Source: Octopus sinensis | Lineage: Eukaryota | NCBI RefSeq assembly: GCF_006345805.1 | Contig: NC_043005.1 | Span: forward strand, 57,040,001 to 57,104,000 | Length of the DNA stretch: 64,000 nt | Direction of reading: 5' to 3' | Shown here: positions 4,317 through 43,663 of the stretch, piece by piece | How the letters are laid out: the number at the start of each line of letters is the position of its first letter | Position numbering within the stretch: position 1 is the first letter of the stretch | Position numbers and translations under genes: made by a program | The notes under the pieces: model-generated | Seen by the model: only the letters and a program-made list of their open reading frames with translations | Told to the model about the DNA's origin: nothing | The model's database searches: none

Positions 4317-5997
4317 TATGTTTCTGATGAAGAGCTCCGCATCCAATAATACTATATTTGTTCCACGTCCTCGCGTTGTTGTATTTTCTCTTGGTGTTTT
4401 CATGTTTGGATTAACTATATATATATATATATATATATATATATATATATGTATATATAAGACTTGGCAATGACGCCCTAGTTTTGCGCCACTTCTGCTC
4501 TACTGGTCCTTCACTACAACATCTGTCTGTGATTGGACTGTCTTTGCACAGAAGCCATCCACACTCCTGCCTTCGCCATGGACAGGATTTAATCTTCTCT
4601 TTTTGCTCCTTTTCACCAACTCCCCTCCTGTCTTCAGTTGGCCTCCCCTCTTCATTACCTCCTCTCAAAATTTTTTCTGGTATATTTAAAAAATATTTTA
4701 AAGTGAAAATGACTTTAAAAATTTGGTAAATATTTCATAAAAGACCTGTTTTAACCTCGGTGTGAAAGCTTTTTTCCATAGGGTTTTTTTGAGTACATTC
4801 GACATATCTCACCGCCAAAGCAACTATTTATTTATTTGTTTTTTATGTGTTATATATTTATATATTTTTTTCTGTGTTAATTGTTAACAAGAGAGTGTCT
4901 GTGTGGTAAGTAGCTTGCTCACCAACCACATGGTTCCGGGTTCAGTCCCACTGCTTGGCATCTTCGGCAAGTGTCTTCTACTATAGCCTCGGGCCAACCA
5001 AAGCCTTGTGAGCAGATTTTGTAGACAGAAACTGAAAGAAGCCCATCATATATATATATATATATATATATATATATATATGCAGCACGGACTTTGTCAG
5101 TGAACAGGTTGTGGATTTTAGCGAAGAAAATATTTTGACAAATTAAACTTAAATGTTGAAGTGAATCGAACGGCTTTTGTGTGTTTCTTAAATGGCTTAT
5201 AAACACCTTCCACGCTGCAATTGTTTTCGTTTCAGCACATGATCTCAGATCAAATTACTTGCTATGCGAGTACATCTCCGTAATATATATATATATATAT
5301 ATATATATATATATATATATATGTATGTGTATGTGTATATGTTTGTGTGTCTGTGTTTGTCTCCCAACATCGCTTAACAACCGATGTTGGTGTGTTTACA
5401 TCCCTGTAACTTAGCGGTTTGGCAAAAGAGACCGATAGAATAAGTACTAGGCTTACAAAGAATAAGTCCTGGGGTTGATTTGCTCGACTAAAGCTAGTGC
5501 CCCAGCATGGCCACAGTCAAATGACTGAAACAAGTTGACCCCTACATTTGTTTGTTTGTGTCCAAGTGACTTAATGGTTTGTTAAAAGAGACTAACATAG
5601 TAAGAACCAGATTTTAAAAGATATGCACTTGGATTGATTTGTTTGGCTAAACCATTCAAGGTGGTGCCCCAGCATGGACACAGTCCTATGACTGCAACAG
5701 GTAAAAGATTAAAGATACATTGCTAAATGTATGTATGCCAAATTTTGCATGCGTGTGCACGCGCACTCGCATGCACACACACACACACACACACACACAC
5801 ACACACACACACACACACACACACACACACACACTTACCCACATACATATTTTGACACTTTAATAAGTGCTATACATGGAATTCTTGACCTTCAAAATTT
5901 TATAATTACTTTATAATTTTTGTCAATTAAAAATATATTTATCCTGCTTTTATATTGGCAAACCTATATATATATATGTGTGTGTTGTGTGTGTGTA

Positions 5998-6868
5998 TGG
6001 TCTGATCAGTAAGTATCCGGACTGTTGCCATAGTAACGAAGCTAAAGCATGCAGAGTGAAGCTGCTTGGCACAGATTGACCTTGATCTCTGCTGTGCATG
6101 TGCACTAAGTTTTAATATTCTTGCTCACTTCCACTGTTTATAACAGTGCTTGGAAATAACGTGTGTAGCGTGTAATTGTTGCACTGAGCATGACAGAGAA
6201 AGTTGAGCAGAGAATCAGACATCAAATTTTTCCAAAAGCTTGGTGATATCTGCTCTGAGGCTTACACAAAGTTTTCAAAAAGCTTTTATCGTTCTCTACA
6301 CAATCAAGGAGATTTTATGCAACTGAAACCTGAAAGCAGTTTTGGTACAAACTTGGCAGATGTGCATCTCATACTGAAATCTTCAGTGATAATGGTTTGA
6401 ACTGAACTGTAACTAATCTGTACATCTTCTGATAACTCACGAATGGTAATTCAACGATTTCTCCTCACAGCTGCCTGCACATCTGCAACGTTTTTGTCAG
6501 TTCTACTGGTTGCGAGTCTCCCAGAACGTTCGTCACTCTCAACATTTTTTCGGCCCTCTTGGAAACGTCTGAACCACTCGTATACTTGTGTGCAGCTTAT
6601 ATACTCCTCTCCATGCACTTTCTGCAACTTTGCATTGGTCTCTGATCAGGTATCACTATGACAAGTTTCTCTATCATGGTCAATCTGACGATCACACGCT
6701 ACACGTGTTCCTTCCAAGCACTGCTGTAAACAGTGGAAGTGAGCTAGAATGTTAAAACTTAGTGTGTATGCACAGCAGAGTCCGAGGTCAATCTGTGCCA
6801 AGCAACTTCACTCTGCATGCTTCAGCTTCATTACTATGGCAACAGTCCAGATACTTATTGAGATCTCG
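5998..6868. mobile_element. Rearranged non-autonomous mariner made of two inverted 5' ends
   Basis: About 200 bp inverted arms ending in TA; transposase N-terminus on + (MTEKVEQRI...) and on - (YEWFRRFQEGR...AKFVPKLL). Confidence 0.8.
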
Positions 6869-8304
6869 TACATATATATATATTTATCATTGTTTTATGC
6901 CTGCTTACTGTACTAGCACAGGTAGGTCTGGTTGTGACAGCCCAAGTTAATTCATATTTGGAGATAATTCTCTCCTAGATGAGTCATAAGAATGAGTCTC
7001 TTCCATACCTTTCATTTATTTTAAGAGTGCACGCATGCACACGCACACACACACACACACACACACACACACACACACACACACTGAGTAGTACTAGAAT
7101 TTCCATGTGGCAGGCTTCATAATTGTTAAGACATTCCTCTCAATGTGAAACAATCGGTAACCTTGTTAACCCATAAATAAAGAATATTTATTCACCACTT
7201 CAGTCTTGAGTACGCATTCCCACTGTTTGATATTAGCATATACACACACATACAAAGTAGTGGGGTTTAGTTCACAGGTGACCTAAACGGTTAGGTACGA
7301 TAGGTAAGTGCTGTAATGGATTACTAAGACTCCAAGATTATAGCTGTGATGGTAGTTATGGAGCCATTGCAGATTTCTGATGCAGCGGATGTATAATTGT
7401 TAAGGAGGACAGCAAACATTAAGGCAAGGCAAACATCTCAAGTCGTATACAATATTATTATAGGAAGAAATTCAAAATCTTTTCTGGGATATCCTAGAAA
7501 CAGCTGTAAGACTTTGAATTTCTTCCTATAATAATATTGCATACGACTTGAGATGTTTGCCTTGCCTTAATGTTTGCTGTCCTGTTTAACAATTATATAT
7601 ATATATATATTTATATATATATATATAGGGGAGAATTCACAAAAAAATAAAAAGACGAAGACAGGTGGTGTAGACAACAAACAGATGTATTAGTTTAAAG
7701 TTCGGGAAGTGAAAAAGTCTTAACGTTTCGAGCCTAGGCTCTTCCCCAGAAAGGAACACAGAAAGAAAATAAAGAATGTGTAGTAGCTAGTGATCTATCA
7801 TGGCGATATATATATATATATATATATATATATATATATATATATATATATTAGAAGGTTTGGAGATGATGTATAGGTATTTTATATTAGAAGAAATGAG
7901 GTACTCAGAAATTCGGATGGTTTTATATTTACATATATTTATTTGTATATTACATGTTTTTATACATCTTATAACTTATATCATATTATTGCTTTCGTCC
8001 ATTCTGGTGGATTTTTCAAATTGAACTGTTCAATTTGAAAAATATGTACATATATTTCTTATAAAATATATATATACTAAATTATGTCACAACATAGTGA
8101 TTAACCCTTTCCTCTTGTTTTCATTTGTTCACTTGTTTGTTAATATTCAATAAAATATTCATCTAATCATACGATTAGACAAGAGCAGACTTCATATCAT
8201 ATGTAGTCCTATTTGTTGATATCGTTTCACAGATTTGTTGACATTTTTCTTTTTCTATCTGAATTCACCTTTTATTTAAAGCTTTAAATGTTTTGTCTTT
8301 CCAG

Positions 8305-8468
8305 AATCTTCCGTTCATGAAATCCATGACAGCAGTGGCTTCATGGATGCATTAACCAGTGCTGGTCCAACAACAGGGTTATTTCGGCGAAAAAAGAAAG
8401 TACCTCCAGTTGCTAGCAAAACTAGTCAACCATCGGGAGTTGGGCAAAAACTACCCCAACCTCCTTGT
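8305..8468 (+). CDS. PPP1R10: PNUTS/PPP1R10 internal coding exon (first one visible)
   Basis: ttccag acceptor, GTAAGT donor at 8469; encodes SSVHEIHDSSGFMDALTSAGPTTGLFRRKKKVPP..., resembling the vertebrate PNUTS GFLDALNSAP...KKKKK segment; frame joins the next exon. Confidence 0.85.
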
Positions 8469-42693: not shown

Positions 42694-42990
42694 ACGAAGT
42701 GGTATCAAAAGGTTCTCAGACTACATATGCTGGAAAAAAAACGAAATATTTACCTAAACTTTAACAGCATCTTCGAAATAGCTATTTTGTGCAGTAATAC
42801 ACCGGTCCCAGCGTACCTGCCACTTTTGGAATTTGGCCTGGAAGTCGTTTTCCGTAAGCAGGTCGAAGACCTTCTGCGATTCAATCTGGATCTTGATAAC
42901 GGTGTCAAAACAGCGACCTTTGAGCTGTATTTTCATCTTGGGGGAGGAAATGGAAGTCCGCAGGCAATAAATCCGGCGAAAAGGGCGGAT
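42694..42990 (-). mobile_element. mariner 3' end fragment
   Basis: FQKWQVRWDRCITAQNSYFE C-terminal mariner motif followed by a TIR-like end. Confidence 0.75.
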
Positions 42991-43616
42991 GAGAGACGAG
43001 ATGGAGGTTTAATTTGAGGGAATTTTGGCTGATACTTTCCGCAGGTCGTGCGACAATGTACAGGCTACTTCACAGAAGTGGAAGTGGATAGAAGAATCGG
43101 GAGAAAGGAGAGTGGAAGAGATAAGCGAATGAACACAGGATAAAGATCCTCCCCGAGTCATATAGACTCATAGACCCATAAGGGCCGGTTTCCTGGTTTC
43201 TGTGGCGTTTAAATTCCCTCGTGGGCGGGACGCCGAACAGTCGCAAGATTACTCATTTTTGCCAGCTGAGTGGACAGGAGCAACGTGAAACACAGTGTTT
43301 AGCTCAAGAATACAACGCATCTCCTGGACCAGAAATCGAAACTACAATCTTACGACCACAAGTCCGATACTCTAACCACTAAGCCACACGCCTTCACTAA
43401 TAAACAGAAGTTAAGGCAATTTTCTGACTATGCAAGATCTTAAGGCGGTTTTTATTTATTCTTTATAATTTCAATTGCAGCGTGGAAGCCATTTAAGAAA
43501 CACACAAAAACCGTTAGATTCACTTCAACATTTAAATTTAATTTGCCAAAATATTTTCGTCGCTTTGAGACCGCGACCTGTTCGCTGACAAAACTTCCTG
43601 CTGCATCTCGAAGTTG

Positions 43617-43663
43617 TGTCAGTGAACAGGTCGCGGTCTCAAAGCGACGAAAATATTTTGGCA
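43617..43663 (+). ncRNA. Minimal hammerhead variant with G3-C8 core (copies at 5093-5142 +, 22465-22514 +, 43542-43592 -)
   Basis: UGUCA / GUGAACA-g / GUCGC-loop-GCGAC / GAA / palindromic AAUAUU / U17 / UG(G/A)CA. Confidence 0.65.

Follow-up and report, generated by a model that had tools for sequence, protein, structure and literature searches.

Hammerhead motifs in sister Penelope-like elements of an octopus carry the 3-8 core pair as C-G, G-C or U-A

Minimal type I hammerheads are known from the pLTRs of metazoan Penelope-like elements (PLEs), where published text describes them with an extra nucleotide, palindromes, U3-A8 cores and low activity (PMC4209133), and a natural U3-A8 hammerhead had already been published (PMC3088659). 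For the lizard PLE PAc, in vitro work describes an internal start of reverse transcription, uncut RNA as substrate, partial rescue by C3G/G8C and protein-assisted cleavage (PMC11167929). An engineered G3-C8 hammerhead is described as less active with C17 (PMC3884650). We found no report of a natural G3-C8 hammerhead in a search of mostly open text that excluded figures and Lunse et al. 2017 (PMC5785218).

Hammerhead cores with all three of these 3-8 pairs were found in a 64-kb stretch of Octopus sinensis DNA (hereafter, the window). G3-C8 cores (family A) lie at 5100, 22472 and 43622 on the forward strand and at 43585 on the reverse strand, the last reading GCGAACA; U3-A8 cores (family C) at 39134/39157/39180 (+) and 39121/39098 (-); and C3-G8 cores at 39526 (-, family B) and 12533 (+, family D). 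These core coordinates confirm the motifs named by a first-pass annotation, whose account of them holds in part. Families B and D have the canonical type I core; A and C differ from it at positions 3 and 8, with compensation, and family F, a third sister of A and C with C3-G8 that was exposed by genome search and not by window motifs, differs mostly at position 9. Stems I and II are present around the core; in minimum-energy folding they form in A and in one of the three C copies that were tried, and in C stem I is only 3 bp; stem III is palindromic in A, B, C and D. The annotation had omitted the additional G that separates A9 from stem II in families A and C, and several copies are damaged or altered: that at 5100 has lost the 10.1-11.1 closing pair of stem II, that at 22472 has one stem II mismatch, that at 12533 has stem II flanked on either side by an additional A, and core 39180, which lies in a triplication, must use the first repeat at 39131 for its 3-bp stem I.

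A descriptor that left positions 3 and 8 free and called for stem I, stem II and a stem III of palindromic sequence gave four matches in the window, each with a Watson-Crick 3-8 pair; 60 local shuffles gave 0.22 on average and one at most. The 5100, 22472 and 12533 copies fail the descriptor owing to damage or bulges. Chance resemblance to a hammerhead is nevertheless a reading to be weighed, since relaxed descriptors yield false matches (a looser first version gave chance matches) and no hammerhead family was reported at the named sites among the Rfam matches listed (150 of 177). We regard it as extremely improbable, in view of the shuffles, of a pLTR position like that of known PLE hammerheads, and of the full elements and compensatory changes among ten aligned hammerheads described below, and it is largely refuted by the full elements, covariation and shuffles.

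In family A, a forward-strand solo pLTR at 5077..5284 (core 5100-5106, predicted cut after 5135) has (TA)n on both sides, and another at 22448..22656 (+; core 22472-22478, palindromic stem III 22501-22506) contains an ORF start at 22564 with 31 codons of a PLE N-terminus. A head-to-head pair at 43473..43803 joins a forward core (43622-43628) to an inverted 5' piece with core 43585-43579, which carries U4C, and is flanked by a 10-bp target duplication (43463-43472 and 43804-43813). Family C has a head-to-head pair with U3-A8 cores at 38996..39372 (stem II 39188-39202, stem III 39206-39209), whose forward copy bears a 23-bp triplication with cores at 39134, 39157 and 39180; a longer forward copy at 36916..37531, with 3' UTR, a hammerhead from which stem II is deleted, and the ORF start; a second head-to-head pair at 33801..34037, truncated below the hammerhead core; and forward-strand remnants of the RT/endonuclease coding region (62142..62740) and of the GIY-YIG end (34602..34808). 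Family B is a pLTR piece of a Hydra-type PLE at 39393..39610 (-), inside (TA)n, with a canonical C3-G8 core at 39526-39520, a long stem II and an 8-nt palindromic stem III. Family D, an older C3-G8 hammerhead at 12529..12607 (+; core 12533-12539, 8-nt palindromic stem III), has a second, more decayed copy at 49070..49196 (-), 78% identical; no ORF was traced for the family D element. The window copies are solo or head-to-head inverted pairs, not tandem units.

Read from an ATG, the 3' half of A and that of C encode related peptides. BLASTP with these two short peptides returned no alignment; none of 20,000 shuffles scored as high as their short alignment. A profile search led to three proteins, one of which (P0002) extends the family A peptide and, used as a query across the genome, recovered whole elements together with family F. 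The search with the family C peptide was swamped by solo copies. Element L234 is full, with a hammerhead at 1065, an ORF at 1157-4368 with one frameshift, a 3' UTR and a second hammerhead at 5426, while L238 has direct pLTRs with hammerheads at 998 and 5552, and in L232 the frame runs to 1042 aa and includes YVDD and GIVY/YIG motifs (RT plus GIY-YIG). Family F is carried by L235-L238. In L245 a family C hammerhead lies 3' of a homologous RT/EN, with a partial tandem pLTR, and the same RT/EN is found in L187/L179, which were selected through the family C 3' UTR; in L032 and L053 a family B hammerhead follows a Hydra-type endonuclease. The hammerhead stands 90-135 nt 5' of the start codon of the RT/GIY-YIG ORF, with a second copy after the 3' UTR. 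Pfam GIY-YIG matched family F (E=1e-3) and gave no match for the family A protein; Atlas neighbours of the element protein are RT/GIY-YIG proteins and its closest named homologues are from octopus. A metagenome scan gave three loci, two of which are short contigs that the coding match occupies in full.

The repeats in the window are therefore pLTRs (5' leader plus ORF start) of PLEs, as the annotation had suggested, families A, C and B each being tied to an RT and/or GIY-YIG ORF. The features of an EN+ PLE are present: a single ORF with RT and C-terminal GIY-YIG, direct hammerhead pLTRs flanking that ORF (L234, L238), inverted 5' pieces, an optional tail and target duplications. Family B is a separate clade, of Hydra type. 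Ahead of GIY-YIG, the A, C and F lineages have a short linker of the form CX2-5CxxC. It was compared with published rows by eye, and by the spacing of this linker only these lineages would be classed as Nematis-type PLEs. As possible partners of A and C, a young 1009-aa PLE family (L147) and the Hydra-type family were each examined and ruled out.

Over about 380 residues, RT/EN proteins are 45-55% identical between A and F, 46-49% between A and C, and 43-56% between C and F. Description of the repeat families as unrelated has consequently to be given up for the G3-C8 and U3-A8 families, which are homologous by this protein identity and by the peptide alignment above. In a tree built without L112 (too little overlap) and with a long branch as outgroup, A and F form supported clades and the C rows and the branching order of the three lineages do not resolve; no order of the 3-8 changes is claimed. 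We aligned ten hammerheads from A, C and F, with rows and structure of our own choosing and an effective sample of three lineages. In this alignment 96% of cells pair, against 27-54% in slid controls, and six of 11 pairs change on both sides, including 3-8, which is GC in four hammerheads, CG in three, UA in three and unpaired in none; the chance that two double changes at 3-8 both stay paired is about 1 in 9. G5, A6, G12, A13, A14 and A15.1 are invariant across the three lineages, U3-A8 is kept in 26/30 family C loci chosen by upstream sequence alone, and a Watson-Crick 3-8 is the majority form in every family. At the level of sequence, three sister lineages are shown to carry the predicted 3-8 pair as C-G, G-C and U-A, with compensatory change between lineages. 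The covariation first proposed for this DNA is better supported than was originally argued, because A, C and F are homologous.

It seems to us likely that this 3-8 series in the pLTR hammerheads of sister PLEs reflects selection keeping a fold whose self-cleavage would be weak, would take place in a dimer or would be assisted by the element protein. Family A has U17. The predicted self-duplex of stem III is marginal in A (-0.2 kcal/mol), C (+2.2) and F (+1.4) and stable only in B among A, B, C and F; the predicted minimum-energy dimers of A, C and F differ from the two-core active fold. The argument for selection on self-cleavage itself is weakened by amplified core-breaking variants and by missing starts at the cut site, as appears from genome-wide counts.

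Exact motif matches across the whole 2.7-Gb genome number 5,567 for the G3-C8 motif of family A and 4,040 for the U3-A8 motif of family C, and family F has 3,478 matches with positions 3, 8 and 9 free. When position 3 or position 8 alone is changed, the counts mostly stay at mutation level, with 205 and 148 in A and 254 and 184 in C. G3-G8 is present in 194 copies of family A, versus about 38 for the other transversion, C8A (estimated by eye from 26 in the first 100 of 148 matches). These G3-G8 copies occur on both loop types, and include an element whose frame is 597 aa long (L202/L233). Copies with broken cores may have been mobilised, or a mutation hot spot may be the source of the excess. 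In family F, position 9 is C in 81, A in 17 and U in two of the first 100 of 3,478 matches, counted by eye. The A9C majority in F and the 194 G3-G8 copies in A count against a strict need for cleavage, and both would suit a fold kept for a non-catalytic role (protein binding, promoter, translation control) or surviving as a relic, with 3-8 swaps passing through dead intermediates. Such a reading would also agree with inserts made from uncut RNA (below), with hammerhead mutants that left insertion in vitro unimpaired according to the text on PAc (PMC11167929), and with Naiad PLEs, described as thriving without canonical hammerheads (PMC8557442). We nonetheless consider it rather unlikely, as the six invariant core positions are kept though the proteins differ by half, and 3-8, an active-site tertiary contact, is paired in the majority form of each lineage.

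Insertion structure was examined at the 30 best-matching loci each of A and C, a set biased to similar copies, after 40 candidates per family had been scored. Target duplications of at least 8 bp flank 10/30 A and 16/30 C loci (controls 1 and 2), and inverted 5' pieces occur at 11/30 and 19/30. The reported association with (TA)n is borne out at the 16/30 A and 6/30 C loci with (TA)4 at the 3' junction, and not at the remaining loci. Short copies have two alternative 3' ends about 60 nt apart, at the two tail sites of the element; their start is a single 5' site that lies 25 nt (A) or 13 nt (C) upstream of the core. The 5' start of family A also resembles a 3' splice site.

Independent non-autonomous ribozyme retroelements, the other origin considered in the first-pass annotation, are not supported for the window copies. 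A separate retrozyme or SINE family spread through tandem or circular RNA would fit the few tandem arrays of leader plus ORF start found elsewhere (L166, with a 331-bp period; L215, L217 and L218, about 400 bp) and the proposal that animal retrozymes derive from PLE pLTRs (10.64898/2026.07.22.740005). It appears very improbable: the short copies follow the leader and ORF start of the autonomous element in linear order (96% to L234), they begin at the one 5' site rather than at the cut site and end at the two tail sites, and the window copies are not the tandem units, each with a hammerhead, of non-LTR retrozymes.

The base before the 5' start is C or T in long elements, while G is common in short copies: by eye, 70 of the first 100 of 1,298 A/G/T matches in family A and 51 of the first 100 of 998 in family C, with 22% expected. 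C stands there in 964 matches of family C, long forms included, and in 139 of family A outside the long-form (TC) context. Extra G from a reverse-transcribed cap is known for LINEs, and the extra G here is probably of this kind; a spliced 5' exon was considered as its source and the cap preferred, the preceding base varying among loci. Copies starting at the predicted cut site show no excess (63, versus 66 at one control site four bases on). Thousands of inserts derive from uncut RNA, because starts at the predicted cut site are not in excess.

Under the reading that we favour, selection keeping a weakly self-cleaving fold, transcription would start 13-25 nt upstream of the core. The PLE protein would nick AT-rich DNA and begin reverse transcription within the ORF start, 8-31 codons in, and priming on the first leader with copying back to the cap would produce a solo insert of 140-210 bp that carries the extra G. 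Since the inserts come from uncut RNA, any cleavage would belong to another step of the cycle, probably the trimming of tandem read-through transcripts or removal of the cap. A bolder combination, which we hold to be possible but doubtful, is that family A would be the first natural high-copy G3-C8 hammerhead, active in vivo, in a PLE clade walking between C-G, U-A and G-C, and that the cut behind the cap would be a switch destroying or decapping the mRNA, while only uncut capped RNA would be inserted. If this were true, searches with CUGANGA fixed would leave thousands of animal hammerhead copies uncounted in each genome; for families A and C about 9,600 exact matches are invisible to CUGANGA descriptors.

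PLE hammerheads and natural U3-A8 were already known; the new parts are a natural high-copy G3-C8 lineage, a three-state series in sister elements and an uncut-template signature. The search, covering mostly open text, found no report of an extra G in PLE inserts. C3-G8, G3-C8, U3-A8, A9C and G3-G8 provide matched natural variants in sister elements with near-intact proteins, a set well suited to assays of cleavage and transposition. From the side of the genome, the counts of extra G and of starts at the cut site back the in vitro finding of an uncut RNA template.

The octopus hammerheads share with those of metazoan PLE pLTRs the extra nucleotide between 9 and 10.1, G10.1-C11.1, a short palindromic stem III, the pLTR location and solo and opposite-strand copies, and family C shares its U3-A8 core with Schistosoma Cercyon (PMC4209133). 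Unlike in that work, where the text of Fig. S3 has no G3-C8 among its representative motifs, three 3-8 states here map onto sister lineages with linked proteins. Non-LTR retrozymes, as described, are likewise short repeats with type I hammerheads and a relationship to PLE pLTRs (PMC7229834; 10.64898/2026.07.22.740005); the window copies, by contrast, stand alone or head-to-head, not in tandem, and include the ORF start. Family B resembles the Hydra clade in its C-terminal GIY-YIG with CxxC and CxH, its canonical hammerhead and its (TA)n insertion; its hammerhead differs from the one listed for Hydra-1_Obim (PMC8557442). The A, C and F lineages are like the Nematis rows of the supplement to that paper, and not like Neptune, in their C-terminal GIY-YIG with CCHH and short CxxC linker spacing. 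As described for PAc Poseidon of Anolis, they have a hammerhead at the ORF start, putative internal initiation of reverse transcription that yields two 3' ends, AT-rich targets and uncut RNA as substrate (PMC11167929). PAc belongs to the Poseidon clade, in contrast to the CxxC-linker elements seen here, and G3-C8, an engineered rescue mutant in PAc, is in family A the natural majority form.

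Among the sister Penelope-like element (PLE) lineages, the third, family F, known from other loci of the same genome (L235-L238 and L244), has a C at hammerhead position 9 in its major form, and its ORF contains long Asn-rich insertions. Internal pieces of this ORF also form a tandem array at L248, where they are not accompanied by hammerheads.

Additional hammerhead motifs and PLE remnants were found in the window. A sub-threshold match to Rfam Hammerhead_HH9 (31.9 bits, E 4e-4) at 2870-2958 (-) has a canonical core, and a short piece related to it lies at 1638-1666. A separate minimal hammerhead family with a canonical core and a 4-nt palindrome, also present at L093, L095, and L125, is represented by a truncated copy at 4324-4345 (+). 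The remnant at 30123-30912 (+) belongs to a young PLE family (related locus L147:1667-4693) with a long, Neptune-type linker and open frames reaching 1009 aa in its copies; a motif scan of six loci revealed no clear hammerhead tied to this element. A decayed Hydra-type GIY-YIG endonuclease remnant occupies 45618-46001 (-). The window also contains a mariner-type transposase remnant at 19220-19576 (+; Pfam Transposase_1, E 5e-16) and probable host gene exons at 20691-21032 (+) and 23630-24328 (+), the latter with Gly-Pro repeats.

Upstream of the family A hammerhead, L202 and L203 display a branch-point, a pyrimidine tract, and an AG, resembling a 3' splice site, and the inferred start of the family falls at these signals. 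The leader and ORF start are repeated in tandem at L166:3700-4560 (unit 331 bp, hammerhead in every unit) and at L215, L217, and L218 (unit ~400 bp, one hammerhead per unit). These four arrays suggest template jumps at the capped end and, in having tandem hammerhead units, are similar to non-LTR retrozymes.
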